A stretch of 64,000 nucleotides of DNA from Deltaproteobacteria bacterium (GTDB lineage: Bacteria > Desulfobacterota > Syntrophia > Syntrophales > UBA5619), in the NCBI GenBank assembly GCA_021372415.1, contig JAJFUM010000089.1, positions 30 to 64,029 of the forward strand. The letters are read 5' to 3'. The position numbers and the translations under genes were made by a program. Each line of letters opens with the position of its first letter. Positions within the stretch are counted from its first letter, which is position 1. This document shows, one piece after another, positions 7,696 through 57,481 of the stretch. Below the pieces are notes generated by a model that was not told the DNA's origin, searched no databases, and worked only from the letters and a program-made list of their open reading frames with translations.

Positions 7696-8250
7696 TCACC
7701 CCTTTTCCAGAAGCACGGCCCGGCTCAGGCTGACGGCCGGCCGCTCAAGGATCCGAAAGCCAGCCTCAAGGCACGCCGCGGCCATCCCCTCAAAGGTCCC
7801 GAGTGTCACGTGGAGCTTCGGTTCGACCAGGAGGAAACGTCCCCCCGGCTTCAGGAGGCCGCGGATCTCCCGGAAGAGGCGGGGCTGGTCCGGCACCTCG
7901 TGGGCCATCCAGAAGGCGAGGGCGAAATCGGTCTCGGCCTCCGGGTTCAGTCCCAGGGTGTCCGGCCGGCAGCGGTGAAGGACGATCCTGCCGTCCACCC
8001 CCGCCTTGCGGGCCCGCTTCCCCAGAGCCGCCAGCATCCTCTCCTGGAGATCGACGGCAACGACCCTCCCATCGGAACCCGCCAGCCTTGCCATCGCCAG
8101 GGTGAAGTATCCCATCCCGCAGCCGATATCCAGGACCTGCATGCCGGCCTTCACATGGGGGGCCAGGAGGCCCTCCGGATCATGAAAGAGACGGCGCAGG
8201 GGATTGTCGAAACTGTGGCAGAGCCACCAGGGACAGACCAAATGAGCCAT
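7696..8250 (-). CDS. class I SAM-dependent methyltransferase
   Basis: 'VLDIGCGMGYFT' motif I, 'GRVVAVDL' motif II, 'LKPGGRFLLVE'. Start ambiguous (8250 or 8268). Confidence 0.75.
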   Translation of the reverse strand: MAHLVCPWWLCHSFDNPLRRLFHDPEGLLAPHVKAGMQVLDIGCGMGYFTLAMARLAGSDGRVVAVDLQERMLAALGKRARKAGVDGRIVLHRCRPDTLGLNPEAETDFALAFWMAHEVPDQPRLFREIRGLLKPGGRFLLVEPKLHVTLGTFEGMAAACLEAGFRILERPAVSLSRAVLLEKG

Positions 8251-8340
8251 TCGCCATGCCCTCCCCAAAGGCCGATCCGTGGATCCTTTTGCCCGGATTT
8301 CCGCTGGACGCAGGCGCCGGGTCCCACGCCTTCCCCACGT

Positions 8341-8586
8341 TTAAGGCTTGAGCTTGTTGTGGGCGCCGTCGCAGTACGGGGGCTTGCCGGAGTGCTTGCA
8401 GCCGCACCAGGCGACGGTCTTGGGATAGCTGATCGACACCTCGACGGGTTTCATGTCGGTGCCGAGTTTCTCGTGGGCGCCGTCGCAGAACGGATCTTTG
8501 GCCGAATGGCCGCAACTGCACCAGTGATAGGTCCCGGGCTGCATCTCCATCATGTAGGGGCCCTTCTTGACGATCTTCGGTTCCAT
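8341..8586 (-). CDS. small CDGSH iron-sulfur domain protein (two CDGSH motifs)
   Basis: 81 aa with 'CSCGHSAKDPFCDGAH' and 'CGCKHSGKPPYCDGAH'. Confidence 0.85.
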   Translation of the reverse strand: MEPKIVKKGPYMMEMQPGTYHWCSCGHSAKDPFCDGAHEKLGTDMKPVEVSISYPKTVAWCGCKHSGKPPYCDGAHNKLKP

Positions 8587-8818
8587 GGTCGTTCCTCCTC
8601 GGTTTTGCAGGTTTCTACCCGCAGGGTAAAGATCCTAATGACTGTATGACTGTAAAAGTATAGGGGGACGGGAGATGGACTGTCAACCCTCAAAACTCGT
8701 ATCCGAGGCCGATCAGGCAGGCCGTGGAAGGCCCTATTCCAGAGATCTGCATCCCCGTCGTTCTGGATCGGCACGCGCACCCTGGAGAGGGTCCCCGATC
8801 CCGCCGCCCTGATCCGGG

Positions 8819-10228
8819 CTATTTCTCCTTCAGGAAGAGCCGGACCGGACCGATTTCGACGAAGGACGGCCCATCGCCGAAGTTTCCGGCAATGACGACG
8901 ACCAAGTCCTCCTCCAGGAGACGGCCCGCTTTCAGGTGGCCCCTCAGGGCCCTGCGGATAAAGTCCTGGCTGTCGGCCGTCTTTTCGATGTACTCGGCAA
9001 AAACGCCGAAGGAGAGGGCCAGATGCCGGACCACCTGCCATTGGTAGCAGTGGGCGAAGATCGGTTTGCGGCCCCGGAAACCGGCCATGTTGCGGATGGA
9101 ATTCCCCGAAGAGGTGTCGGCGATGATGGCCCGGGCGTCCAGCTTCAGGGCCGCCTCCACGGCCGTCTTGGTAAGGAAGGCCGAACGCTCGTTGGTCAGG
9201 ACCACCGTCGGGACGTCGTCGATGTCGTTGCGGGACTTCTCGACCTCGGCGGCGACCCGGGCCATGGTCGTCACGGCCTCCAGGGGATAGCGGCCGCTGG
9301 CCGTCTCGGCGCTCAGCATGATGGCGTCGGTGTTGCTGTAGATCGCGCCGGCGATGTCGCTTACCTCGGCCCGGGTGGGCCGGGGATTGGCGATCATGGA
9401 CTGGAGCATCTGGGTCGCGATGATGACCGGCTTGCGGCGGGCGATGCACTTCTCGATGAGCATCTTCTGGACCCCCGGGACCCGCTCAAAGGGGATCTCG
9501 ATAGCCAGGTCCCCGCGGGCGACCATCACCCCGTAGGCGTGATCGAGGATCTCGTCGATGCGGTCCACCCCTTCCTGGTTCTCGATCTTGGCGATGATCT
9601 TGATCGGGCTCTTGCACTCGTCGAGGATGGCCTGGACGGCCAGAACATCCTCCTTGCCGCGGACAAAGGAATGGGCGATGAAATCACAGCCCTGCTCGGC
9701 TGCGAGACGGATGTAGGCCCGGTCCTTTTCGCTCAGGGCGGGCAGATCAAAAGAGACCCCCGGGACGTTTACGCTCTTTCTCCCCTCGATCCTTCCGCCG
9801 TCCAAGGCCTCGCAGATCAGGGTGTCCCCCTGCCTCTCCAGGACCCTGAGCTCAACCGTTCCGTCGTCGATGAGGATAAGGCTCTCCGGCGGGACCTCCG
9901 CGACGAACCCCCGGTGGCTCACACAGACCTCATCCCGCGTCGATTCCCGCTCCGGATCCCCCCGGAAGACAACGCGATCTCCCTTTGCCAGGACAATCTC
10001 CCCGGCAACGGGGGTGGTCCGGACCTCCGGGCCCTTCGTGTCGATCATGACGGCGATGTGGTCCGAGACCTCCCGGACGTTGCGGATCAGCTTCAGGGCC
10101 CCCTCCGGGGACTGGTGGGCGGTGTTGATCCTCACCACGTCCATCCCGGCCCGGTGGAGCTCGGCCAGGAACGGCACCTCACAGCGTTTATCGGAAAGGG
10201 TCGCGACAATCTTGGTCTTCTTGTTCAT
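8819..10228 (-). CDS. pyk: pyruvate kinase
   Basis: 'KTKIVATLS...MDVVRINTAH', 'IKIIAKIENQEG', 'VMVARGDLAIEIP', 'IIATQMLQSM'. Start at MNKKTKIV. Confidence 0.9.
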   Translation of the reverse strand: MNKKTKIVATLSDKRCEVPFLAELHRAGMDVVRINTAHQSPEGALKLIRNVREVSDHIAVMIDTKGPEVRTTPVAGEIVLAKGDRVVFRGDPERESTRDEVCVSHRGFVAEVPPESLILIDDGTVELRVLERQGDTLICEALDGGRIEGRKSVNVPGVSFDLPALSEKDRAYIRLAAEQGCDFIAHSFVRGKEDVLAVQAILDECKSPIKIIAKIENQEGVDRIDEILDHAYGVMVARGDLAIEIPFERVPGVQKMLIEKCIARRKPVIIATQMLQSMIANPRPTRAEVSDIAGAIYSNTDAIMLSAETASGRYPLEAVTTMARVAAEVEKSRNDIDDVPTVVLTNERSAFLTKTAVEAALKLDARAIIADTSSGNSIRNMAGFRGRKPIFAHCYQWQVVRHLALSFGVFAEYIEKTADSQDFIRRALRGHLKAGRLLEEDLVVVIAGNFGDGPSFVEIGPVRLFLKEK

Positions 10229-35824: not shown

Positions 35825-36967
35825 TCAAACCGTTCCGCCGGCAAGGCGGGATTGGTACTCGTCGATGACCTTTCTCTTGTCGAAATCCCCCATATTGAGA
35901 ATCTTGCGGACGGCCGTATCGTCCCAGGGGGGTTGATGGCCGATTTCACGGGCGGCCTTGTCGGGATCCTGTTGTTCGGGATCGAGGATCTTTTCGCTCA
36001 GATGGGTATCGTCCCCCATCATGACCAGCAGGCGTCTGCCCCCCTGCCCGGCCTTGTTCTTCCTGATCACCGTCTGGATCAAGAATTCCGTAAACTCCCG
36101 GGATTGCGGATTCCAAACCTCATAGCCGTCCACATCATAATCGGCCAGAAGGACAGGCCAGAACTGCTCCGGATGGGGCACGACGACCCCGCCGGCCAAT
36201 CCTCTGGCCTCCTCGATGATCTCGTTCACCTCATAGAAATAGTCGAGACGAAACCGTCGCTTCACGACCTCCTTGACCCCGGCCGCAAAGATCACCGACC
36301 TGTCGATTGCATGGGCATCGTAAAACTCCCGATGGGCGTTGATGTAACTGATCACCAGCTTGTTCTTCAGCGCCATGTCGGGAATCGAATCGGACCTCAA
36401 TTCAATCATCCTTTTGAGCTTTCCGGCCAGGACCCCGGTAAAGAGGACCAATGCTTCCTCGGTTCCCGTATGCCTGGCCGCTTCCAGGAGGCACCCCTCA
36501 TGACGGGGATCGACCAACGTCTCCAGAAACTCGAACAACTGCGTCTGTCGATACTGGCGGGTATGGGCGATCATGGACCTCAGGCTGTGGGCCTTTTCGA
36601 TCTCTCCGGACCGGAAATGGAGCAGGATCTGAATCTTGCGATTGAAGGCATCGGCCCGACAGTCTACCTCGGCACCCGCGTAATCGCCGTAGACGAGGAT
36701 CTCATTGTGCTGGGTCGGAATGATCAGGGTCTGACCGGCATGGGGATAGACCCTCCGCAGCCTCGTTTCGACCAGCGGCAGGGGGACCATCTCCGGGTGC
36801 CAGTGGATGGCCAGAACAGACCCCTCCGTGTCGAAAATCTTCCCCGGGCAGACGATGCGTTCGATCTGCAGCGGGGTGAGTTCCATCGCGGTCAGTTTCT
36901 CAAAGATCTGCAGATCCCATTCCGTAATTTCCTCCACGGCATCCTGGAGGTTTCTGATTGCTGGCAT
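35825..36967 (-). CDS. hypothetical protein, possible PHP-like metal-dependent phosphoesterase
   Basis: His/Asp motifs in PHP-like order: 'AIHWHPE' (HxH), 'PTQHNE', 'VVPHPEQF', 'DGYEVWN', 'MGDDTHL' (GxDxH). Start uncertain (ATG 36967 or TTG 37006). Confidence 0.4.
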   Translation of the reverse strand: MPAIRNLQDAVEEITEWDLQIFEKLTAMELTPLQIERIVCPGKIFDTEGSVLAIHWHPEMVPLPLVETRLRRVYPHAGQTLIIPTQHNEILVYGDYAGAEVDCRADAFNRKIQILLHFRSGEIEKAHSLRSMIAHTRQYRQTQLFEFLETLVDPRHEGCLLEAARHTGTEEALVLFTGVLAGKLKRMIELRSDSIPDMALKNKLVISYINAHREFYDAHAIDRSVIFAAGVKEVVKRRFRLDYFYEVNEIIEEARGLAGGVVVPHPEQFWPVLLADYDVDGYEVWNPQSREFTEFLIQTVIRKNKAGQGGRRLLVMMGDDTHLSEKILDPEQQDPDKAAREIGHQPPWDDTAVRKILNMGDFDKRKVIDEYQSRLAGGTV

Positions 36968-37014
36968 GAACAACGGTCCCTCGCCTCCGAAATTTTCATT
37001 ATCCAATCATCAAA

Positions 37015-37054
37015 CTGTAACGCGAATATGACGGGAGCGTTAAGATCTCATGAA
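37015..37054 (-). promoter_or_regulatory. Pho-box-like array facing the GAK-type operon
   Basis: Gene-sense TTCAT-n6-TTAAC-n6-GTCAT-n6-GTTAC with exact 11-bp phasing. The -10 candidate GATAAT lies 3 nt further away than in the strong promoters. Confidence 0.4.
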
Positions 37055-37133
37055 ATCGAAATCCGCCGCCCCATTTCATTAAATGCCACCCCTCTGATCC
37101 TCAGAATCTCCCATATCAAATTGGGAACTTAAA

Positions 37134-37169
37134 AAAGGCGATCGGGGAGATCCTTCAGCGGTCGCCTTT
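37134..37169. terminator. bidirectional-terminator-like hairpin inside a divergent promoter region
   Basis: AAAAAA-AAAGGCGATCG-13 nt-CGGTCGCCTTT-CC. On the minus strand the stem is followed by TTTTTT. Confidence 0.35.
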
Positions 37170-37178
37170 CCACCGAAG

Positions 37179-37231
37179 TTTCACGGAGGATTCATCCAAG
37201 CGTCATCACTTCGTCACAGGGATCGTATAGA
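37179..37231 (+). promoter_or_regulatory. Pho-box array plus -10 TATAGA upstream of the 811-aa ORF
   Basis: TTCAC-n6-TTCAT-n6-GTCAT-n6-GTCAC; all four TCA cores are 11 bp apart. TATAGA follows 8 nt later, about 50 nt before the GTG at 37283. Confidence 0.6.
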
Positions 37232-37282
37232 CAAGGAATCGAATGTTGAGAGAATCTGAAACCCCTTTGAAAGGAACTGTCT

Positions 37283-39718
37283 GTGAGCAGAAATGAAAAC
37301 GCCCTGTCCCCCCCCGTGGTCCCGATGCGGGGGCCGGAGGAGCGGCTTCTCTCCTCCCGGGAGGCGATGGAAAGACTGGACGTTTACGGGCCGGCCGGTA
37401 TTGATGCAGAGGCCCTGCCCTTCTCCCTTTACGATACCACCGCCGGAAGCGAAACCGAGCTACAGGCCGTCGTGATCGGAAAGCGGGAAGACGTCGACCT
37501 CCCCATCACGATCACTCAGTCCCACTACCTGGCCAACATCATCCGGCGCAGGGCCTCCGGCGAACTGCCGGGACGAGCGATGACCGAGTTGGAAAGGTAC
37601 CTCCAAGACAATGTCGACGGCGTGTGGGAAAACAGCTGGGTCCGCTTCCCCAGGGACATGCTGGGCCCCTTCGCCCAGGGGATCCTCAGTGGCGACCTCT
37701 TGGCGGACAAGGCCGACCCTTCCCAGGGATACCGGACCGACCTGACCGATTTCATCTTCCGGCAGGAAGACCGGGAATATCTCCGCATCCCGATCAGTTA
37801 TCTGCTGAAGCTCTCCCTGGCCGAGGCGATCGACGGACAGCCGCCCGCCGTGGCCGAGACGGGACGCAGCCTGATGGATCACTTCCTGAGCGACAACACC
37901 TCGCCGGAGATCTGTTCCTTCCAGGTCTCATCCCTCACCCCCCGGACCGGGATGGGCCGAGAGGTGGCCAGGGAATCGGCGAAGCGGTTCCTCCTGACGC
38001 AACTGCTCGTCCAGTACGCGAACCAGCGTTTCGGCCTCATGCAGAGCGGGCAGAAGGCGATGGTATTCTATTCGCCCCATCCGCCGATCCGTCAGAAGAG
38101 GCTCAACGCCTGCATCTCCGACGCCTTCTACCGGGAGCTTTTCATGAACCCCTGCCTTTCGGGTTGGAACCGCGGCGAGATCAAAAAGGAATACATGCAC
38201 CTGTGTCATCGGGTCCTGAGCCGCAGCCAGCTCAACGCCCTGGGGAAGCTCCGCGAATCGGGCATCATCACCCGCAACCTCGTGGTCCTTCCGAATACCT
38301 CCAACATCTGCCTGGCCAACAACGGAACGCACGTCAGCCTCGGCAGCCGAAAAATCACCGCTCTCCTGAAGGACCCGGCCTCCGGCTTCACGGCCCGCCA
38401 CGAGAAATACCTCGGGGATCTGGTCATCAAGATCCTGGAGCATTTCCTCCCCCTCTTCGTGGGCACCTACAGTGCGACCCCCTACCGGCTCGACTACTCG
38501 GAATTCCATCCGGAATGCGTCCTGGGGTTCCTTCCCCATGAACTGGATTTCGACCACCTGCGCATGCTCTGGAGGCGGTGGCAGAAGAAGGCGGACATCC
38601 GTGTATTCGGGAAAACCGTGACCCCCTTCGGTCCCCCCTGGCTCGACGGGGCGATCCGTGCTGTTTTCAGGCTCCGCGGCGATTTCCTCCCCGACTTCCG
38701 CCTCATCGACTACCTGGTGGCCCTGAGGAGCACTGAAAAGAGCCCGGCCCTGGACGGAATGCTTCACAACCACGACCGGCTCAAGCAGGATCTTGCCGAA
38801 CTGGGCGTCTTCGACAAGCGGATGTCCCTCTACCTGTTCAACAAACTCCGCGAGTATGCCACCATGGGGTTCTCCGGCTTCGAGGGACGCTCCTACAGCC
38901 TCTTCTTCAATCTCGAAGAGGATATGGCCGGGGCCGTGGACCTGCAGAACCTCTTGGCGGCCCTTGCGTTCCAATATATCGCCGGGGGGATCGCCGACCA
39001 CGACCGTATCCCCGACGATCCTTTTGTCGAGAGCGAGAGACGGCAAATCGTCTTCGGGCGGGCCGTGGGCATCCCCACTTTTTTCGTCCGCCAGGACACC
39101 CAGAACCTCTTCCTGCAGCGGATCATCGAGAAGACCCAGCGGGTCAGGGTCAGCCGGCGCTATCCCGGCTACTGGAGGGTCCACCACCGGGAGTATTGCC
39201 GGGCCCTCGTGCGACTTATCCGGGAAGACGGGGCGGATCTGATCAAAACTCTCGGGATGGCCGAAAAGATCGCCGACCTCGAAAAGAGGCTGGAAGATCC
39301 TGACCGCTGTTCCGCCCTGGGAAAGCTGACGCAGGCCATCCTCCAAAAGGCCAGGGCCGCCTCCCCGATGGCGGTGCAGGCCGCAAACTTCAATCGGAGC
39401 GCCGAGGACTACTACCGCAACGACCTGCGGAAGGCTCACGCCATGGAAGGGGTCCGCTTTCTTGAGGAAGACCTTCGGCGCATCGCCTCGACCGCCTGCA
39501 ACGAAAAAGAAACCCTGAACGCCCTCCTCCGGCAGATCGGCGGTGACGGGTCCTGCTCCGAATCCTTCAGATGGGCCATCAACGACGAAAATACCCCTCC
39601 GCAAATCTTACGCAGCCTGATTTCCATCCTGATCGTCACCGTCGGCTTCGATCGCCGGGAGTCTGAACGGGCAACCGTCGAGATGGCCGGTCACCGCCTG
39701 GACGCGGTTCACCAGTAG
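37283..39718 (+). CDS. large conserved-looking hypothetical protein (811 aa), no family recognised
   Basis: Long ORF with balanced amino-acid composition, unlike its Arg/Gly/Pro/Asp-rich antisense shadow. AAAGGAA RBS 7 nt before the GTG. No TM segments or signal peptide. Confidence 0.6.
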   Translation: MSRNENALSPPVVPMRGPEERLLSSREAMERLDVYGPAGIDAEALPFSLYDTTAGSETELQAVVIGKREDVDLPITITQSHYLANIIRRRASGELPGRAMTELERYLQDNVDGVWENSWVRFPRDMLGPFAQGILSGDLLADKADPSQGYRTDLTDFIFRQEDREYLRIPISYLLKLSLAEAIDGQPPAVAETGRSLMDHFLSDNTSPEICSFQVSSLTPRTGMGREVARESAKRFLLTQLLVQYANQRFGLMQSGQKAMVFYSPHPPIRQKRLNACISDAFYRELFMNPCLSGWNRGEIKKEYMHLCHRVLSRSQLNALGKLRESGIITRNLVVLPNTSNICLANNGTHVSLGSRKITALLKDPASGFTARHEKYLGDLVIKILEHFLPLFVGTYSATPYRLDYSEFHPECVLGFLPHELDFDHLRMLWRRWQKKADIRVFGKTVTPFGPPWLDGAIRAVFRLRGDFLPDFRLIDYLVALRSTEKSPALDGMLHNHDRLKQDLAELGVFDKRMSLYLFNKLREYATMGFSGFEGRSYSLFFNLEEDMAGAVDLQNLLAALAFQYIAGGIADHDRIPDDPFVESERRQIVFGRAVGIPTFFVRQDTQNLFLQRIIEKTQRVRVSRRYPGYWRVHHREYCRALVRLIREDGADLIKTLGMAEKIADLEKRLEDPDRCSALGKLTQAILQKARAASPMAVQAANFNRSAEDYYRNDLRKAHAMEGVRFLEEDLRRIASTACNEKETLNALLRQIGGDGSCSESFRWAINDENTPPQILRSLISILIVTVGFDRRESERATVEMAGHRLDAVHQ

Positions 39719-49642: not shown

Positions 49643-51592
49643 TCAGGTGAAGAACAGGACCCAGAGGATCTGGCCCAGGAGGAAGAGCCCCAGCAGGAGG
49701 CTGGCCAGGCCGAAGGTCGACCCGAGGAGCTTCAGGGGGATTCCCGGATAGGAGCGCTTCATGGACTCCAGGCGGGCGTCGTCCTTGAGGCGTTCGTAGT
49801 GGAGGGGCCGCTGCTCCTTCATGTCCTCCAGGGTGTAGGTCCCCGTGAAGATGATCCGGTCCATGGGGAACTTCGTCGGGATGAAGTGGGTGTTGAAGAA
49901 GTGAACCGTGAAGATGAAGAGGGCCGCCAGCAGGGCCTCCTCGGAATGGACGAGGGAGGCCACGTTGAGGAGCCAGCCCGGGAATAGGTACGAGGACCAC
50001 TCGGGCACCCACATGAGAACCCCCGAACTGCCGATGGCGAACATCCCCCAGAAGACGGCCCAGAAGTCGAACTTCTCCCAGTAGGTCCAGCGGTCGAATC
50101 TCGGCATCTCCCCTTTGTTAAAGAACCACCGGCCCATCCCCTTGAAGTCCTCCCAGTCCTTCCAGTTGGGGACGAGGGAATCGGGACCGAAGAAGCGCCC
50201 CCAGAACCCGCGGCGCCCCTGGCCCTTCGGGAAGAGGTATCGCAGGGACAGCCAGGCCACGTAGGCCACGATGGCGATCAGCAGGAGGGCCGCCCCGCGG
50301 TGGAAGAGGCCCGCCTGGTGCGCACCGCCCCAGAAGCGGATGAGGAGGCCCGAGAAGGCGGCGGTGTGGTACTTGAGCGGAAATCCTGTCATGACCAGGG
50401 TGAAGAAGGAGAGGATCAGCAGGACGTGCATGATCCGCTCCCTGCGCGAGAAGCGCTGGATCTGCTGCAGCCCCTCGCCCTTGGCCAGGAGGGCCCTGGG
50501 CAGGATGCCCTGCTTCTCCATGCGGTGGTTTTCCCAGTAGGTCTTGCGCCACCACAGGACGGTGTGGAGCCAGAAGAAGCACAGCGTCCCCACGAGAAGC
50601 CCCGACATGGCCACAAAGGTCCAGAAAAGGGCGGGATAGCGCTTCCGGTCCCGGTAATCGGGATGGGCCTTGTAGTCCACGAAGCGCGGATGGAATCCCC
50701 GGTGGCAGCGGCCGCAGTTATGGACGAGATTCGCGGGGTGGATGCTGGAACGGGGATCCCCTTTGGGAAGGATATTGTGGGTGGTATGGCAATCGGCGCA
50801 ACCGGCCACCCCTGCCGGATAGCCGATGCTCTGGACCTTGCCGTGATAGGTCTGCTCGTAATAGGCGACGATCTTGGGGTTGAGGTTGTTGCGCCTCGCG
50901 ATGACCGGATCGGCATGGCAGCGCTTGCAGTTTCGGCTGTAAAACTCCCGGGCCTCCTCGGGATACTTCTCCAGGGAGGTGTGGAAGACCTGCGTGTTGT
51001 GGAGGCCGTGGCAGTCGGCGCAGGCTGCGGCGTCCTGCTTCCCCTTGAGGACCGCCTCGGCGTGGCCGGAGGCGACGTAGTCCTCATTGGCGTGGCACTC
51101 GGTGCACCTCTCGATGACGACCCGCTTGAGGGGTTTCGTCCGGGCCTTGAAGGAATGGATCTCCCGATGGCAGTCGACGCAACGGAAATCGAGCTGGACG
51201 TAATGGAAATTCCGGCGGTATTCGAGCGCGATCTGTTCATGGCAGTTCCCGCAATTCACGGGGGCAGGCTTCTCCAGCCCTTTGCTGTGGAGGTTCTGAT
51301 GAGTGATCCCCGTGTGGCAGCCCGTGCAGCTGTTCTCGCCGTGGACCGACCGGGGGAAGGCCCCGCGGTAGAGGTAATCGTCGTGGCAGGAGAGGCAGTC
51401 GAGCACCGCCCAGGCAGGCATCGTCCCAGGCCCCGCCAGGGAAAGGGCGACAAAGCCGGCCACCAGCAGGACCAGCCGCCAGAAGGCCGCAATCCTCCGC
51501 ACCGGCCCTCTTTCGATCTTGAAGAGATTCCATGCGGGCATCGGGAATCCCATGCCCCGGTTGCAATCATTCCTGTCCACGGTCGGTCCCAT
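49643..51592 (-). CDS. CbcL-like fusion: 9-haem periplasmic c-type cytochrome domain plus HydC/FdnI-type di-haem cytochrome b membrane domain
   Basis: Nine CXXCH motifs (CLSCH, CTGCH, CGNCH, CVDCH, CTECH, CADCH, CKRCH, CADCH, CGRCH), followed by 4-5 TM helices with conserved His ('MHVLLILSF', 'GLFHRGAALL', 'SLVHSEEALL...FTVHFFNTHF'). Confidence 0.8.
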   Translation of the reverse strand: MGPTVDRNDCNRGMGFPMPAWNLFKIERGPVRRIAAFWRLVLLVAGFVALSLAGPGTMPAWAVLDCLSCHDDYLYRGAFPRSVHGENSCTGCHTGITHQNLHSKGLEKPAPVNCGNCHEQIALEYRRNFHYVQLDFRCVDCHREIHSFKARTKPLKRVVIERCTECHANEDYVASGHAEAVLKGKQDAAACADCHGLHNTQVFHTSLEKYPEEAREFYSRNCKRCHADPVIARRNNLNPKIVAYYEQTYHGKVQSIGYPAGVAGCADCHTTHNILPKGDPRSSIHPANLVHNCGRCHRGFHPRFVDYKAHPDYRDRKRYPALFWTFVAMSGLLVGTLCFFWLHTVLWWRKTYWENHRMEKQGILPRALLAKGEGLQQIQRFSRRERIMHVLLILSFFTLVMTGFPLKYHTAAFSGLLIRFWGGAHQAGLFHRGAALLLIAIVAYVAWLSLRYLFPKGQGRRGFWGRFFGPDSLVPNWKDWEDFKGMGRWFFNKGEMPRFDRWTYWEKFDFWAVFWGMFAIGSSGVLMWVPEWSSYLFPGWLLNVASLVHSEEALLAALFIFTVHFFNTHFIPTKFPMDRIIFTGTYTLEDMKEQRPLHYERLKDDARLESMKRSYPGIPLKLLGSTFGLASLLLGLFLLGQILWVLFFT

Positions 51593-51593
51593 G

Positions 51594-52346
51594 CTAGGGC
51601 CTTTTGTTCCTGGCCTTTTCCTTCGCCGTCATGGCCTTCCAGGAGGCCATGCCGCCGAAGAGCCTCTCCACGGTGTATCCCCTCGCGATCAGATAACTGG
51701 ACGCGAGCGGGGAACGGAAACCCCGGTTGTCCACGAGGATCAACGGGCGGTCGAGGGGCAGCTCCCGCCAGCGCCGGTGCAGCTGGTACATCGGCAGATT
51801 GACGGCACCCTCAATACGCTCTTTACGAAACTCCTTTTCCGATCGGATGTCCACGAGGAGGGCCCCTTGCTTCTCCGCCATCCTCTTTCGCAGGGCCAGC
51901 GGCTTCAGCGACGGGACCGCCCGGCGGGGGATCCGTTCCACCGAGACGGTCTGGTAACCGGCGATCTTCCAGGCCGGCATCCCGCCCTCCAGGAGCCGGA
52001 CGGCTTGATATCCCTGCCGGGCCGCCATGCCTGCCGCCTCGCGGCTTCTCCGCGAGGTCTCGCTCTCACAGTACAGGACCAGCATCCGGTCCCTGTCAGG
52101 GGCCATTTCGCCGATCCGTTCCTCAAACTCCTCGATGGGGATGCAGAGGGAACCGGCGATGCTGTGGTCCCGGCATTCGATCTCGGACATCGTGTCGACC
52201 AGGAGGGGCCTCTTCCCCTCGGCGATCATCCGCGCCAGCGTCTGCGGCGGGAGCCTCTGCCACCCCGTCTCGGCGGCCCCTGCGGCGGCGCAGAGGAACC
52301 CCATCAGCAGGATTCCCGAAATCCCAGATTTCAAAAAGCGGCCCAT
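51594..52346 (-). CDS. exported tandem-rhodanese protein (active N-domain, Cys-less C-domain)
   Basis: Signal peptide 'ISGILLMGFLCAAAGAAE'. Active-site loop 'VLYCESETSRRS'. Second domain has 'ILVDNRGFRS' (Asp instead of Cys). Confidence 0.75.
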   Translation of the reverse strand: MGRFLKSGISGILLMGFLCAAAGAAETGWQRLPPQTLARMIAEGKRPLLVDTMSEIECRDHSIAGSLCIPIEEFEERIGEMAPDRDRMLVLYCESETSRRSREAAGMAARQGYQAVRLLEGGMPAWKIAGYQTVSVERIPRRAVPSLKPLALRKRMAEKQGALLVDIRSEKEFRKERIEGAVNLPMYQLHRRWRELPLDRPLILVDNRGFRSPLASSYLIARGYTVERLFGGMASWKAMTAKEKARNKRP

Positions 52347-52362
52347 GGACCTCTCGACCTCT

Positions 52363-54990
52363 CTATTCATAAGCGGGCACGGCGCGGACACCCCACCCGA
52401 CCATCTGCGGCGCCGCATTCGGTTCCTTCGGTGTCGGGTAATTCTCCTTGAGAAATCGCCCCACATGGAGGATCTTCATCTTCATGAAGAACGGCGCGTT
52501 GTCGCTGTGGCAATCCAGGCATCCGTCGGGGCTCCCCTTGGCGCCGTAGGTCTTCTTCCGCTCCAGGGGAATCACGTTGTGGTAAACGGCGAAGGAAGGC
52601 CTCTCCCCCGGCCGGAGGATCTCGGACTCGACCAGCTTTTCCTGCCTGACTTCGTACAGCTTCCGGCCCACCATGACGACGTTCTTGAATCCCGCGTCGG
52701 TCAGGGCCCGGATCAGGGCCTTGATGTCCTCCTTGGTGCTCACGGTCTGGGCCAGGAGGGCATGGCCCCGCTCGTTCCTCACCTCGATCATCGAGAGCCC
52801 CGTGAGATTCTTCAAGGCCTGACGCACCGGGACCGGTCCGATCGGCCGGACCGACCCGTCTTTCTGCCTCTCCCCGAACCATCTCGCCGGTTGCGCGCCG
52901 GCTGCCCCAGAGGGAGTCCTCAAGGCCGCCGGTAATGCCGAGGAGACGACCTTGTCCTTCTTCATCTCGTAGAGCCGGCCGGAAACAAAGACCACGTCGT
53001 GAAATCCCATTCCTGTGAGGGCCCGGATCGCCAGCCGGATGTCCCTTCCCGTATCGACGACCGGCTCGACCCGCAGCGTGCCCCGGGGGCCTTTGACCTC
53101 CGCGAGGGAGATCCCCTCGAGGGCCCGGAAGGCCTGCAGGACGTACTGGAGGCCGATCGGCCTGATCTCGCCGCCCTCCTGCCGTTCCCCGAACCACGTG
53201 GCGTTCCGGTCATAGGGAGGGAAGGATTGGCCCGGGGCCGCCGCCGGCGCATCGAAGGGAATGACCCGGTCCCCCCGGAGGGCGTAGACGCGGTCCGCAA
53301 CGAAGACAACCTCCGGCCCCCCCTGGCTGGAGAGGGCCCGGATCATCTGCCGAACATCCGCCTCGGTGGCGACAGTCGTCTCTTTCCCCTCTTGTCCCCG
53401 GATGTCCCGGACAGCCACCGACGAGAGGTCCTTGATCCCCTCGGCGGCCCGTCGCACCCGGGTCGGAGGGATCGGCCGGATCCGGCCGCCGTCCAGCTTC
53501 TCCCCGAACCACTGGGAGGCCCGCGTCACGCAGGGGACGTAGCGTTCCCCTTCCCCCTTGACCCGTTCGTAACGGGTGATCCAGGGGGCCCATGGGGCGG
53601 CTGCGGGGGCAGTCCAGTCGTCCATCGGACCGATCCGTTCGAGGCGGTCCGCCGTATACAGGACCTCCTCCCCGGCGGCGGCATCCCGGAGGTAGATCGC
53701 CCGGCCGGGCTGGGCCGTGGAATGACAGGCCGAGCAGTGCAGGAGGGAAAAGTGAAACAAGGCCCGCGGGAACCTCTCCCTGTGCGTTTTCGAGGGATCG
53801 CGAGCCTCTCTGGGCATCCCGGGGCGCGTTGGCCGGTAACGGCCCTCGAGATGGCATTTGGCGCAGGTCATCATTCCGACGCCGTCGAGGCGGTCCATGA
53901 CGGTCCCCTGCGGCGAGAACCCCTTGGCAATCTGGTGTTGGAGCCGCTGCGACTTGGACCGGCCCGCCAGGGGGTGGCAGTCCGTGCACTGCAGCCCCGC
54001 CGCCACGTGGGCATCGTAAGGGGCTTCGTGGAGCGTCCCCGTCTTGCGGGCGTCCATCTCCCGGTGGCACTGCAGGCAGTTCTTGGCACCCACCTCCCGG
54101 TTGATCAGCCGCCCCTGGAGCTTCCCCTCCTTCGTGAAGAGATGGCCGTCCTTCCAATGGTAGTCGACGAGGGGACTTTGCGAGAGGTTCCACGTTCCGG
54201 TCTCAGAGGCCGACCCTGGGCCAGCCGTCGGAACGGCATAGGTGAAGACCGCCCCCCGGACATCGCCAAGGCCGGCGCCGGCCGTGGCGGCCCAGCGGTA
54301 GTTCCTCAGGCTCAACTGGGCGTTGCGCCGGTCGAGGCGGTACCCGGGAAAATGGCAGATCAGACAGTCCCCCTCCACGACGCCGGTCTCGCGGAAACGG
54401 CTCCGCCCGTCCGGCGTGGCCCGGGAGCTGTAATCCCCGTCCCGGGCCGAAGCGCCCTGCCTTTCGCCCTCGATCAGCGTCTTTGAAAAATCGGGCCTTC
54501 CATCGGCCTTCCGGCCGTATTCAAGGGGCCCCCCTCCCGGGTGGGTCCATCCGCAGGCCGCAGACAGGGCCTTCCCATCAGGGCCGAATTTTCCGCCCGC
54601 CCCGATCCAGTCGAAGGAGGAAAGGCCCTCCCCGTGAGGAGTCAGGTTTTTCTTCGGGGCGATGTGGCCGGAGGCGATCCCGGGGATGCAGCCCATCCCG
54701 TAGATGCCCGGGGAGGGGACCAGGGGACCGCCCGGGTCGATGCCGCCCTTTATCTCATCGAACCCCTGCTGGAAATGGTACCCCGAGGTGATCGTCGTGT
54801 AGCCGTGACAGGTCCCGCAGGTCCTGCGCGGGCTGTAGGGGTCCGCGGCGTTCCGAGAGGGGGTGATCCGCTCCCCCTGCTCGTTCTTGAGCCAGATGTC
54901 CCCGTGCCGCCACGGCTGGGCCGCCTGAAGCGGAAGCGCAGACAGAACAAGGGCCATGCAGACCGCAGCCGCCGTACCTCTGAATCCCAC
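52363..54990 (-). CDS. large heptahaem c-type cytochrome with three internal ~105-aa tandem repeats
   Basis: CGTCH, CLICH, CLQCH, CTDCH, CAKCH, CSACH, CLDCH. Signal peptide 'AAAVCMALVLSALPLQAA'. GTG 54990 is preceded by GGAGAGGA; the track start is ATG 55056. Confidence 0.75.
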   Translation of the reverse strand: MGFRGTAAAVCMALVLSALPLQAAQPWRHGDIWLKNEQGERITPSRNAADPYSPRRTCGTCHGYTTITSGYHFQQGFDEIKGGIDPGGPLVPSPGIYGMGCIPGIASGHIAPKKNLTPHGEGLSSFDWIGAGGKFGPDGKALSAACGWTHPGGGPLEYGRKADGRPDFSKTLIEGERQGASARDGDYSSRATPDGRSRFRETGVVEGDCLICHFPGYRLDRRNAQLSLRNYRWAATAGAGLGDVRGAVFTYAVPTAGPGSASETGTWNLSQSPLVDYHWKDGHLFTKEGKLQGRLINREVGAKNCLQCHREMDARKTGTLHEAPYDAHVAAGLQCTDCHPLAGRSKSQRLQHQIAKGFSPQGTVMDRLDGVGMMTCAKCHLEGRYRPTRPGMPREARDPSKTHRERFPRALFHFSLLHCSACHSTAQPGRAIYLRDAAAGEEVLYTADRLERIGPMDDWTAPAAAPWAPWITRYERVKGEGERYVPCVTRASQWFGEKLDGGRIRPIPPTRVRRAAEGIKDLSSVAVRDIRGQEGKETTVATEADVRQMIRALSSQGGPEVVFVADRVYALRGDRVIPFDAPAAAPGQSFPPYDRNATWFGERQEGGEIRPIGLQYVLQAFRALEGISLAEVKGPRGTLRVEPVVDTGRDIRLAIRALTGMGFHDVVFVSGRLYEMKKDKVVSSALPAALRTPSGAAGAQPARWFGERQKDGSVRPIGPVPVRQALKNLTGLSMIEVRNERGHALLAQTVSTKEDIKALIRALTDAGFKNVVMVGRKLYEVRQEKLVESEILRPGERPSFAVYHNVIPLERKKTYGAKGSPDGCLDCHSDNAPFFMKMKILHVGRFLKENYPTPKEPNAAPQMVGWGVRAVPAYE
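52621..53511 (-). repeat. three tandem in-frame ~315-nt (about 105-aa) repeats inside the heptahaem cytochrome gene
   Basis: Units begin WFGEKLDGGRIRPI / WFGERQEGGEIRPI / WFGERQKDGSVRPI. Each continues ...D[IV]R/K..IRAL[ST]..G[FG]..VV[FM]V..R[VL]Y.... Confidence 0.8.
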
Positions 54991-55172
54991 GGGATTCCTC
55001 TCCACATTTTCCCGGCCGGGGCGCACGGGCCGTCGCCACCGCCGGGCATCCCCCATGGATCTTCACGGACCTGAGAACCGCGATCCCCTGGCACGCTCTT
55101 TGGGAATCCGGTCCCGATCCATCCCTTCCCTTTCGGGCCTCCGGGGCCGCGGCCCCGGAGGCCCCCGACTCG

Positions 55173-56063
55173 TTACGGCTCCATCGGCGCCGCCGCGTCC
55201 TTGGCGTATTCCATCGTCGAGCCGTCATAGGCCTTGGCGTTCGAGTATCCCAGCAGTTCGTGGAGCATGAACCACCAGGCCGTGCAGAACTTTCCCGTAT
55301 CGCAGTAGAGGATGACCTCCTTAGAAGTGTCCGTCCCCACCGCCTTGGCAGCCTCGGCGGCCAGGGCGTCCTTGGACTTGTAGGTCCCGTCCGCCTCATA
55401 CATCAACGACGTGGGAAGATTGACGGCACCCTTGATGTGGCCCGCCCTGGCGACGAAATCCATCTTCTTCTTGCCGTCGAAGAAATCGGGTTCGCGCACG
55501 TCCACGATCACGGCCTTGCCCAAGGCCGCCAGGACGTCGGCCTTCTTCACGACGACATCTTTCTGGAATGTTCCCCTGTAAGCCTTGGACCGGGGTCTGG
55601 CGGCCTCGGTGGAAACCGTTTTCTGGTCGGCGACCCATTTGTTGTAACCGCCGCTCAGGAGGGCCACGTTCTGGACGCCAGCGTACTTGAGCGTCCAGGC
55701 GACCCGGGTGGCGTCAACCCGGTCCGCCGGGGTGTCCATCTTGCCCAGGACCACGACCGGCGTGGTCGCCTCGATCCCTACTGAAGAGAGGATGTCCTTC
55801 AGGTCGTCATCGGCGGGCAACTCGTTGAGGAGATCCCCCTTCTTGACGGCCCAGGAGCCGTAAACGACGTTGACGGCATTGGGGATGTGGCCGGCTTTGT
55901 ACTCCTCGACCTTCCGGACGTCCAGAACGACGACCTTGTCGATGTTCTGTTCCAGCCAGCCGGTAGTGACCACAGGCTCCATCGCCGCCGCGGCGGAGAG
56001 AGCGCCGAGGGACATCAGAAAAGCAAAGGCCATGATGGTGGTAAGCAGTTTCCTTCTTCTCAT
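55173..56063 (-). CDS. periplasmic two-domain rhodanese sulfurtransferase (SseA/Sud-like)
   Basis: Signal peptide 'MAFAFLMSLGALSAAAA', 'LDVRKVEEYKAGHIPNAVNV', active-site loop 'ILYCDTGKFCTAWW'. Confidence 0.85.
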   Translation of the reverse strand: MRRRKLLTTIMAFAFLMSLGALSAAAAMEPVVTTGWLEQNIDKVVVLDVRKVEEYKAGHIPNAVNVVYGSWAVKKGDLLNELPADDDLKDILSSVGIEATTPVVVLGKMDTPADRVDATRVAWTLKYAGVQNVALLSGGYNKWVADQKTVSTEAARPRSKAYRGTFQKDVVVKKADVLAALGKAVIVDVREPDFFDGKKKMDFVARAGHIKGAVNLPTSLMYEADGTYKSKDALAAEAAKAVGTDTSKEVILYCDTGKFCTAWWFMLHELLGYSNAKAYDGSTMEYAKDAAAPMEP

Positions 56064-56072
56064 TGCATCCTC

Positions 56073-57326
56073 CTATTCGCTTATGGGTATGGGTTTGGGG
56101 TTAACCAATAAATCCAAGTTGGCCTTGGAACCGTCCTTGATCAGTTTGTCCTTCGTGAGGAAACCCTTGCGATCCTCGTGGCAGGCGTCGCAGTTTCGGG
56201 TCCGCTCGGTGCGCTTGCGGATGTTGTGCGCCGGGGTGTCCCAGTAGTTGGGCAGGCGGTCGAACCTTTCCATCCCGATCCCCTCGCTCTTGAAGCTGTC
56301 CCGGACCGTGGGGATCAGCCGCAGGGTCGTGACCTGCCTCTTGTTCTTCGGGCTCATCCCGAGCATGAAGCCCGGCTTGGCCTCCGATCCGCCGCCTACG
56401 TGGCAATCGGAGCAGTTGCGGTATTCCGCCGAGGCATGGCATCCGAAACAGGTGACCTTGTCCTGGTGCTTGAGGTGGGCGATCCGGGCCGTGAGCTTCG
56501 CCTCGCCCCCCAGGCGATGGCAGTCCCGGCAGGATGGGCGGTCCCTGACCTCCTCCTTGGCCCGGTAGGCCGTGCCGTCACCGTGGAACTCCCGTTTCCT
56601 GTGGCAGTCCATGCACATCATACCCTTCTGGTAATGGACATCGGCTGTGCCGCCGTACTCGCCGGTATACTCGGGATAGACCCTCCCGCCGTGACAGAAG
56701 GCGCAGGTCTTGCCCTCGTCCTTCTTCACGAACCGGTGTCCCTGGATGAGGCCGACGCTGATCCCGCTGATCACCGGGGACTTCACATGACAGTCGCCGC
56801 AGGAGGCGTGGCAGGACCGGCAGGACTTCTCGAAGACATTGGCGTCGAAATGCTTCGCCTCCGCCGGGGACATCCGCTCGATCACGCGGTTCCGCTGGCC
56901 GGCCGTCGTGTAGTGGAGCGACTTGCCGTAGGTCGAAACGATCCGGGCATGGCACTCCCCGCAGGTCTCGAGGCGGTCCGACGGCCGTTTGTCCCACCCC
57001 TTGTGGGCCAAGTCCTTATTCAGTTTGGAGTCGTCACCCTTGTGGCAGGCGGTGCACCCCTTCGCGAAGTGCTCATCCTCGCTGATTATTTTCCGGTCCA
57101 CGAGGAAACCCCGGTGGTACGTCTCCGCCGAAACCGGCGGAGGAGCCCCCGCTCAACCCTGGGCCTCGCCGGAGCCGAGTTCCGGCACTTTGCAGAGCCG
57201 CTTCAGGAGAGCTTCGTTGGTATGGCAGATGATGCAGGAGCTTTCATTCTTGGCCGTGGAAGCCGAAGAAAGGACCAGGAGGACGACAAAGACGAGCATG
57301 ACACCCGTTACGATTCGAGACCTCAC
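56073..57326 (-). CDS. candidate 11-haem c-type cytochrome translated through in-frame UGA 57153-57155 (possible Sec). Otherwise two ORFs: 57153..57326 signal-anchor monohaem peptide and 56073..57101 leaderless decahaem
   Basis: AAGGAG-n6-GTG at 57326, signal peptide 'RSRIVTGVMLVFVVLLVLSSASTA', CIICH, then TGA. 17 sense codons follow in the same frame, then ten more CXXCH (CTACH ... CDACH). The downstream ORF alone has no export signal. Confidence 0.5.
57123..57142 (-). promoter_or_regulatory. SECIS-like hairpin starting 11 nt 3' of the UGA
   Basis: mRNA: UGA-GCGGGGGCUC-CUCCGCCG-GUUU-CGGCGGAG. Perfect 8-bp GC-rich stem with a G/U-containing tetraloop. Confidence 0.45.
57153..57155 (-). other. 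in-frame UGA codon (candidate selenocysteine / recoding site)
   Basis: The stop of ORF 57153..57440 lies exactly 54 nt (18 codons) upstream of the start codon of ORF 56073..57101, in the same reading frame. Confidence 0.5.
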
Positions 57327-57481
57327 GCGGGACTCCTTCGGGAGATTGTGTACGGTTCCATGGTACCAGAAAGGCGGCACCGGATCAATCCCGATCAACG
57401 GCGGCACAGGCCATACCTTTTTACCCGCAAGGTCTCGCAAAGGCAGGTTTGAGCAGAGTGCCGCCGATCACGGACAGGAAT

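Follow-up and report, generated by a model that had tools for sequence, protein, structure and literature searches.

An in-frame UGA and a conserved hairpin point to a selenocysteine-containing eleven-haem cytochrome c in Syntrophales and related bacteria

RESULTS

An in-frame UGA lies between a signal peptide and a ten-haem cytochrome

The DNA analyzed here, referred to as the window, is a 64,000-nucleotide (nt) stretch from a Deltaproteobacteria bacterium of the order Syntrophales (assembly GCA_021372415.1, contig JAJFUM010000089.1), and its subject is a minus-strand locus that probably encodes a single periplasmic c-type cytochrome containing selenocysteine (Sec). The features of this locus are collected in Table 1. 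A short open reading frame (ORF) preceded by an AAGGAG sequence begins at a GTG, encodes a signal peptide and one CIICH haem motif, and ends at a UGA, and in the same frame, after 17 sense codons (AGAPPPVSAETYHRGFL), follows the GTG at 57101 with which the ORF list opens a second frame containing ten CxxCH motifs and no leader of its own. These elements had been described in a first-pass annotation of the same DNA, and all of them were confirmed from the sequence, as was the perfect 8-base-pair (bp) stem with a GUUU loop that the annotation placed 11 nt 3' of the UGA (about 10-11 nt by our count). Read through the UGA, the fused product has eleven CxxCH motifs in total and combines a signal peptide, judged here by eye without a predictor, with multiple CxxCH motifs, as expected of an exported multihaem cytochrome c. 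The layout of a hydrophobic leader followed by CxxCHT is common to every orthologue. Precomputed Pfam matches for the protein are PF14537, PF14522, and PF22113. One detail of the first-pass annotation, a C-x13-U context for the proposed Sec, was miscounted; the spacing is C-x12-U, and orthologues carry H, Y, V, or F at the upstream position, so that the cysteine is not conserved.

The sequence of the hairpin also encodes the peptide P-P-P-V-S-A-E. On its own the hairpin folds at -15.2 kcal/mol, with 18 nt between the UGA and the apical loop. Rules for bacterial Sec insertion sequence (bSECIS) elements, as given in a 2026 review (PMC13188914), allow a loop of 3-9 nt with G in its opening two positions, a stem no shorter than 4 bp, a spacing of 16-37 nt, and a minimum free energy (MFE) of -7.5 kcal/mol or lower, and the window element falls within all of these limits.

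Table 1. Positions of the cytochrome gene, its RNA element, and neighboring cluster genes in the window
Feature	Position	Strand	Details
Shine-Dalgarno sequence AAGGAG	57333..57338	-	6 nt upstream of the GTG start; direct sequence reading
N-terminal coding part	57156..57326	-	GTG 57326-57324; secretory (Sec-type) signal peptide MRSRIVTGVMLVFVVLLVLSSASTA; haem motif 1 CIICH; ends ...GEAQG before the UGA
In-frame UGA, proposed Sec codon	57153..57155	-	residue 58 of a precursor of 417 amino acids (aa)
SECIS-like hairpin	57123..57142	-	5' arm CUCCGCCG 57142-57135; loop GUUU 57134-57131; 3' arm CGGCGGAG 57130-57123
Rest of cytochrome	56073..57152	-	AGAPPPVSAETYHRGFLVD linker followed by ten CxxCH motifs; ends at TAG 56073-56075
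Periplasmic tandem-domain rhodanese	55173..56063	-	signal peptide; loop YCDTGKFC; PF00581 E = 8.5e-34, two domains; starts 10 nt after the cytochrome stop
897-aa multihaem cytochrome, third cluster gene	52363..55056	-	7 CxxCH; homologue follows in 45/82 clade-A loci
CbcL-like protein	49643..51628	-	periplasmic multihaem c domain plus membrane cytochrome b561/FdnI-like domain; PF14522 and PF01292; start codon not fixed

The UGA and its reading frame are conserved among close orthologues

A protein search with the fused sequence returned 869 clusters, most of which are about 346 aa long and begin just past the UGA site, and are therefore cut by the same stop. We refer to the close orthologues of the window gene, which belong to Syntrophales, Smithellaceae, and Syntrophorhabdaceae, as clade A. 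A scan of one genome per species yielded 380 relatives, and in the best 80 of these 380 loci the codon at this alignment position reads TGA in 79 cases and CGA in 1. In total, 84 distinct sequences carry UGA versus 6 sense variants (CGA, UCA, GCA twice, UAC, and CGU), and TAA and TAG were never found at the site. The TGA-bearing gene also occurs in two isolates, Syntrophus gentianae and S. aciditrophicus SB, the latter with a complete genome (CP000252.1, about 93.6-94.8 kb; positions 8001-9236 of locus L083) whose annotation lists a 53-aa 'hypothetical exported protein', then the TGA, and then a leaderless 351-aa cytochrome. At this locus, ResB/CcsA cytochrome-maturation genes are divergent upstream, and the cluster includes two rhodaneses. 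TGA is an ordinary stop in the window, ending 22 of the 42 other genes, and the genetic code is thus the standard one.

Conservation around the site has the pattern of a translated sequence on both sides of the UGA. Alignments from tblastn run across the site, and a three-base periodicity is evident upstream and from the first codon downstream, with positions +4, +5, +7, and +8 after the UGA invariant, +10 and +11 nearly so, and +6, +9, and +12 varying at 1.2-1.9 bits of entropy. Because this periodicity starts straight after the UGA, the AGAPPP segment appears to be translated in the cytochrome frame upstream of any candidate restart. The first-pass annotation had considered a genuinely split gene, in which the second ORF has its own signal peptide; no orthologue has such a signal peptide, and no restart codon is kept among them, with gene callers choosing differing starts. 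Public gene callers report separate ORFs of 53-79 aa and 342-351 aa, and a profile search with the 57-aa N-terminal segment returned only the 53-79-aa ORFs, the S. aciditrophicus copy included, and no sense variants.

Two full-length database proteins (P0014 and P0050) have tryptophan at the site and were rejected as sense variants, as their DNA reads TGA. Both come from short contigs (L084, 51-1313, and L087, 162-1385), where gene callers apparently switched to a code with TGA as Trp, thereby hiding a selenoprotein and faking a sense variant.

The hairpin is constrained beyond the encoded peptide

In clade A, 62 of the 84 sites satisfy the bSECIS rules, versus 11.7% of the remaining codon positions of these genes. 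Within the stem, third-codon positions hardly change among 75 distinct sequences (U at position 15 in 75/75, G at position 18 in 73/75, and G at positions 27 and 30 in 75/75), whereas those just outside the stem vary, again at 1.2-1.9 bits. The conserved core reads UCCGCC / N-G-U-N-N-N / GGCGGA, with 85% of alignment cells paired and one covarying pair (C-G 45, U-G 6, and G-C 4). Two stem pairs are lost in 3 of the 6 sense variants versus 1 of the 84 UGA genes (Fisher p = 0.0007, phylogeny ignored). Searches of Rfam with the whole window at the gathering threshold and with 57050-57250 at E <= 10 gave chance matches only.

Because of the 5' arm of the clade-A hairpin (57134-57142 on the minus strand of the window and the homologous codons of loci L001-L080), the encoded peptide has to include a Pro-Pro-Pro run at codons four to six past the proposed Sec codon. 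Such runs are stalling motifs that depend on EF-P, and this one could slow ribosomes just after Sec insertion. The run is probably a by-product of the stem, since clade B, described below, lacks it.

A sister clade has the same arrangement with a different stem

An independent set of sequences, clade B, was obtained from a metagenome scan with representatives that start right after the site (MPPLEAWEKV...), and our sample consists of 80 loci out of more than 584 matches, with 79 loci resolvable at the site. The clade-B proteins are about 33% identical to the window protein, and TGA stands at the homologous ...GEG-U-GG.V.PL.P(H/Y)EKV site in 79 of the 79 resolvable loci. It is followed, in the same register as in clade A, by a hairpin with an 8-bp stem and a GUU loop of different sequence, and 67 of the 79 satisfy the bSECIS rules versus a background of 7.8%. 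The stem occurs in several variants (GGAGCC/GGCUCC, GGCUCC/GGAGCC, GGUUCC/GGAACC, and GACGCC/GGCGCC), and this covariation forces a swap in the encoded peptide from E-P-L-A to A-P-L-E. In the clade-B alignment (A9), 94.4% of cells are paired versus 29-51% in slid controls, 3 pairs show double changes with 51 compensated cells, and the covariation score of 0.346 compares with 0.168 in shuffles, none of 500 of which reached the observed value.

Distant homologues carry cysteine at the site

A profile search that covered 1.84 billion representatives exhaustively gave 1,067 matches, 135 of them below 1e-30, outlining a wide superfamily. Among 40 distant full-length representatives, Cys aligns with the UGA in 13, for example in PGEG-C-GGTVPEMEAWEK, so that a GEG-C-GG context in the Cys homologues can be set beside GEG-U-AG in the window family. 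The remaining representatives have Trp in 5 (one, P0196, verified as TGG) and otherwise assorted residues or gaps. Distant homologues with Cys or another sense codon are single chains of 410-480 aa. An earlier notion, that the family has no Cys homologue at all, was abandoned after this search. In a survey of Desulfuromonadia cytochromes (PMC11492766), a large unidentified cluster of periplasmic 11-haem proteins was reported (Desulfuromusa kysingii, 51.3 kDa), and its members could be Cys-form relatives of the superfamily, a candidate link.

A periplasmic rhodanese accompanies the cytochrome in both clades

The tandem-domain rhodanese that directly follows the cytochrome in the window has counterparts throughout the family. 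In clade A, about 68 of 82 loci contain a rhodanese, which in most cases lies directly downstream, and in clade B, a single-domain periplasmic rhodanese (loop CKTGGR) lies 50-230 nt downstream in 59 of the 68 loci with enough flanking sequence. Furthermore, at least 8 clade-B loci encode the UGA-containing cytochrome and a tandem rhodanese as one in-frame fusion, with 637-665 aa following the UGA (L112, L121, L152, L157, L163, L164, L169, and L171, with L148 partial). Both of the Arg variants of clade A (L007, CGA, and L089, CGU) are without a downstream rhodanese, and the neighborhood of L089 is unrelated, a hint that Sec and the rhodanese partner are lost together; with two loci, the sample is too small for a test. 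Near the L089 cytochrome, the large subunit of a NiFeSe hydrogenase (1013-2222) is called as two pieces (293 and 115 aa), and this may be another gene split at a Sec codon or a frameshifted one.

The third gene of the cluster in the window, encoding the 897-aa multihaem cytochrome, has three tandem repeats of about 105 aa that start with WFGE(K/R) at residues 516, 621, and 726 and share 37-48 identical residues per pair, with weak MerP/CopZ-like matches. Orthologues elsewhere align over only about 550-680 aa, and the repeats may therefore be a lineage-specific expansion. The CbcL-like gene stands at the cluster end in 36 of 82 clade-A loci and in S. aciditrophicus, and its product, which also has a TIGR01583 formate dehydrogenase gamma-like match below threshold, is likely a quinol-linked electron entry point. 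Elsewhere in the window, an 815-aa ORF on the plus strand (37271-39718) has a strong coding-type base composition and no Pfam match, and the roughly 1.27 kb ahead of it (35998-37270) is without gene calls by a crude gene finder.

DISCUSSION

Probable decoding of the UGA as selenocysteine

We consider it very likely, at roughly 85%, that 57326..56073 on the minus strand is one gene and that it encodes a periplasmic eleven-haem c-type cytochrome selenoprotein through decoding of the UGA as Sec. The first-pass annotation had proposed a Sec multihaem cytochrome with a SECIS-like hairpin and had suggested that orthologues be aligned and the hairpin examined for covariation; the proposal has gained support from both, with TGA kept in the 84 distinct sequences of clade A and in 79/79 of the sister clade, synonymous sites fixed in the clade-A stem, clear covariation in clade B, and Cys in 13/40 distant homologues. 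Taken as comparative sequence evidence, these observations show that selection acts on the UGA, the reading frame, and the hairpin in both of two deep clades. In the mechanism we envision, a ribosome that reaches the UGA would encounter the hairpin, which would present its G-U apical loop 18 nt downstream and recruit SelB.GTP.Sec-tRNA(Sec), and Sec would be inserted as residue 58 in a glycine-rich loop, G-E/Q-G-U-A-G-A-P-P-P, between haem motifs 1 and 2. The whole chain would then be exported through its N-terminal signal peptide and receive eleven haems.

Several observations weigh against this reading or against the functional model discussed below. The window hairpin is not beyond chance as a single sequence, because the folding energy of its 66-nt region is no better than that of shuffles (z = -1.28, with 21 of 200 shuffles folding equally well in this G+C-rich DNA), and the evidence for a real hairpin thus comes only from the comparative data. 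Covariation within clade A is weak when taken alone, and a C.C mismatch occurs in 18 of 73 sequences, for which an alternative fold with a bulge and a GUC loop is available; part of clade A, the PPPVRPE group, needs a bulged variant. A covariance model of the clade-B UGA and hairpin, run with filters off, misses the window site at 57155, with its best matches at E >= 0.24 and elsewhere, and the hairpins of the two clades are therefore not one alignable RNA family. What they have in common, as far as the sequences indicate, is geometry and not primary sequence, and bSECIS elements are described as similarly heterogeneous in PMC13188914. The six close sense variants encode Arg, Ser, Ala, Ala, Tyr, and Arg and never Cys, which is unusual for a catalytic Sec, and the residue could be dispensable for folding and electron transfer. 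No selA, selB, selD, or tRNA-Sec was found in the 64-kb window or in 60 related loci (L001-L060), as searched with ARAGORN on the window and these loci and with Pfam (SelA, SelB, and SelD) on 40 window ORFs, and the Sec trait of the window's own genome is assumed from relatives; S. aciditrophicus has this trait, with 19 selenoproteins in a 2006 list, none a cytochrome and the present gene not among them (PMC1794560). Finally, the predicted structure of P0006, the closest full-length sense variant, has a predicted local distance difference test (pLDDT) score of 69.9 that falls below 50 around the site, a Foldseek search of this model against the PDB found no structural neighbors, and the functional model is based on gene neighborhood, fusion, and analogy with MccSep, a Sec-containing cytochrome of Geobacter sulfurreducens.

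Three other explanations have to be weighed against Sec decoding. We regard it as very improbable that the UGA is read through in a programmed manner without Sec, by a near-cognate tRNA (Trp, Cys, or Arg) aided by the hairpin, to give short and long products. The assorted residues of the close sense variants, with Cys missing among them, would suit such a mechanism in that the identity of the residue may be tolerant, and P0196 is a true TGG variant. However, two clades whose stems differ both retain a geometry of the SelB-binding type, with 17-18 nt spacing and a loop opening with G-U. In the distant homologues Cys occurs more often than any other residue, as is classical for a Sec site, and the carriers belong to a selenoprotein-rich lineage. 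Moreover, we know of no established bacterial mechanism of hairpin-stimulated read-through without Sec.

It is very improbable that the UGA is a genuine stop, leaving either two products, a very small exported peptide with one haem and a leaderless decahaem protein with its own initiation, or a decaying pseudogene. In favor of this view, public annotations list two ORFs (53-79 and 342-351 aa), and in many orthologues a purine-rich stretch and an ATG occur 11-12 codons past the UGA (EEMY). Against it, haem cannot be attached to a c-type cytochrome that lacks an export signal, the window has no ATG at that place, the start is not conserved, and the codon periodicity begins straight after the UGA. 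In addition, TGA alone among stop codons is used in the 84 and 79 sequences of the two clades, and the distant homologues with Cys or another sense codon are single chains. Decay is excluded by conservation across about 160 assemblies. The last possibility, that the hairpin is a by-product of the conserved peptide AGAPPPV.AE and the window TGA an assembly or sequencing artefact, can appeal to a stem made of the Pro and Ala/Glu codons of that motif and to the unexceptional single-sequence fold (z = -1.28), but it is effectively refuted already by the alignments, in which four-fold degenerate sites are frozen in the stem while equally degenerate neighbors vary freely, the clade-B peptide changes to keep the pairing, and the TGA is reproduced in isolate genomes and independent assemblies. 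The pseudogene and sequencing error that the first-pass annotation had listed as alternatives are thus both excluded, given about 160 independent assemblies and two isolate genomes.

A possible role in sulfur and selenium chemistry

Our proposal for the function of this selenocytochrome is tentative, and we hold it with somewhat less than even confidence: by analogy, it would be a sulfur/selenium redox enzyme in which a selenol center is fed with persulfide by rhodanese. The adjoining or fused periplasmic rhodanese would pass sulfane sulfur to the selenol as a persulfide, and the resulting Se-S intermediate would be reduced to sulfide through the haem chain, with electrons arriving from the quinol pool via the CbcL-like membrane cytochrome and the co-clustered multihaem cytochrome. 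The substrate of such a reductase would be rhodanese-delivered polysulfide or persulfide, or possibly selenite. In each clade, the eleven CxxCH motifs are accompanied by only nine conserved histidines that lie elsewhere in the protein, and no Cys is conserved beyond the haem motifs. On these numbers, at least two haems would lack a histidine as distal ligand, and the Sec/Cys residue would be the sole conserved side chain with a chalcogen that could take part in chemistry. A bolder idea, which we consider unlikely at present, is that Sec58 (Cys in distant homologues) serves as the distal axial ligand or substrate-bridging atom of one of the two haems without a conserved His. If this were true, the protein would have a natural His/selenolate-ligated haem c that accepts sulfane sulfur directly from rhodanese, a new selenium-haem catalytic center, and the obligate syntrophs Syntrophus, Smithella, and Syntrophorhabdus would gain an unrecognized periplasmic module for sulfur/selenium respiration or detoxification.

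The scale of the family, with 869 protein clusters in one search, 380 species-level genomes, and more than 584 metagenome matches for the sister clade, has implications for genome annotation. Censuses of multihaem cytochromes and selenoproteomes in anaerobic digesters and sediments would under-count and mis-size such genes. Selenoprotein discovery pipelines rely on close Cys/Sec pairs, and as these are missing at close range, their absence may be the reason why the family was overlooked; GrdA provides a precedent for a selenoprotein without Cys homologues. The pairing and fusion with rhodanese also lead to a specific hypothesis, namely that syntrophs regarded as non-respiring carry out sulfur/selenium chemistry in the periplasm.

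Comparison with known selenocytochromes and sulfur-metabolizing haem enzymes

As an RNA element, the hairpin resembles the bSECIS of the Escherichia coli fdhF type in that it lies in the coding region about 11 nt after the UGA, and it agrees with the bSECISearch consensus of a 6-8 bp upper stem and a 3-6 nt apical loop opening with G-U or N-G-U, as described in PMC13188914. The distance of 17-18 nt from the UGA to the loop and the MFE below -7.5 kcal/mol are also typical of bSECIS elements. Its sequence is unrelated to that of fdhF, and no Rfam model exists for it or matches it.

The statement in the first-pass annotation that no Sec-containing multihaem cytochrome had been described is outdated, as such proteins have recently been proven to be enzymes with MccSep in 2026 (PMC13510729), and the 2026 review counts among selenoproteins ExtKL, a CXXCH protein of the GSU2204 family, and an octahaem cytochrome of the Otr family (PMC13188914). 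The octahaem family TIGR04315 (tetrathionate-reductase family) and the GSU2204 family NF041027 are, according to the same source, also multihaem or CXXCH proteins with a recoded UGA from anaerobic Desulfobacterota-type organisms. The window protein matches neither of these models at E <= 0.1, nor the MccSep model NF040886 at the same threshold, and a clade-B member scores 20.8 bits against TIGR04315, for which the cutoff is 375. Clade A, clade B, and the Cys forms all stay below the cutoff of every NCBIfam model, with top scores of 31-48 bits against cutoffs of 200-800, and a profile of the family searched against the PDB at E <= 10 misses the MccSep chains 9wt8 and 9wt9, both present in the library. 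Membership in the MccSep, Otr, or GSU2204 families was accordingly rejected, there being no model match and the MccSep chains being missed. No prior description of an eleven-haem Sec family was found in the literature searched, the coverage of which was incomplete, and the family is not among the cytochrome and 'hypothetical protein' entries of the selenoprotein table of PMC13188914. Judged by sequence comparison, then, the family is widespread, apparently undescribed, unrelated to MccSep, and much larger.

In functional terms, a relay of sulfur from a rhodanese to a reductase is known from the Sud/Psr system of Wolinella, where the rhodanese hands sulfane sulfur on to a reductase in the periplasm, as we propose by analogy for the present family. 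A second likeness would be the placement of a chalcogen side chain on a haem or beside it, in this case to the sulfur-metabolizing haem enzymes TsdA, SoxAX, and DsrJ, which have a thiolate at the active haem (cited in PMC13510729). All of these systems differ from the window family in that they use Cys and are not homologous to it.

The closest comparison is with MccSep/ExtKL (GSU2937-2936) of G. sulfurreducens, a crystallized Sec-containing pentahaem polysulfide reductase (PDB 9wt8/9wt9; NF040886) that is essential for sulfur respiration and in which U325 lies beside a His/Cys-ligated haem (PMC13510729). The window protein differs from MccSep in having eleven haems instead of five, Sec at residue 58 instead of 325, no Ig-like C-terminal domain, and no conserved non-motif Cys that would match the haem-ligating C239. 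The two nevertheless share a considerable number of traits, as both are periplasmic multihaem c-type cytochromes formerly annotated as two ORFs, whose genes contain a single in-frame UGA and a SECIS-like hairpin downstream of it, both place the Sec in a Gly/Pro loop (DG-U-P in MccSep and EG-U-AG..PPP in the window family), and both have a rhodanese-family neighbor, which in the case of MccSep is ExtH. Since MccSep performs sulfur/selenium redox chemistry through its haems, it provides the best functional analogue of the window family.

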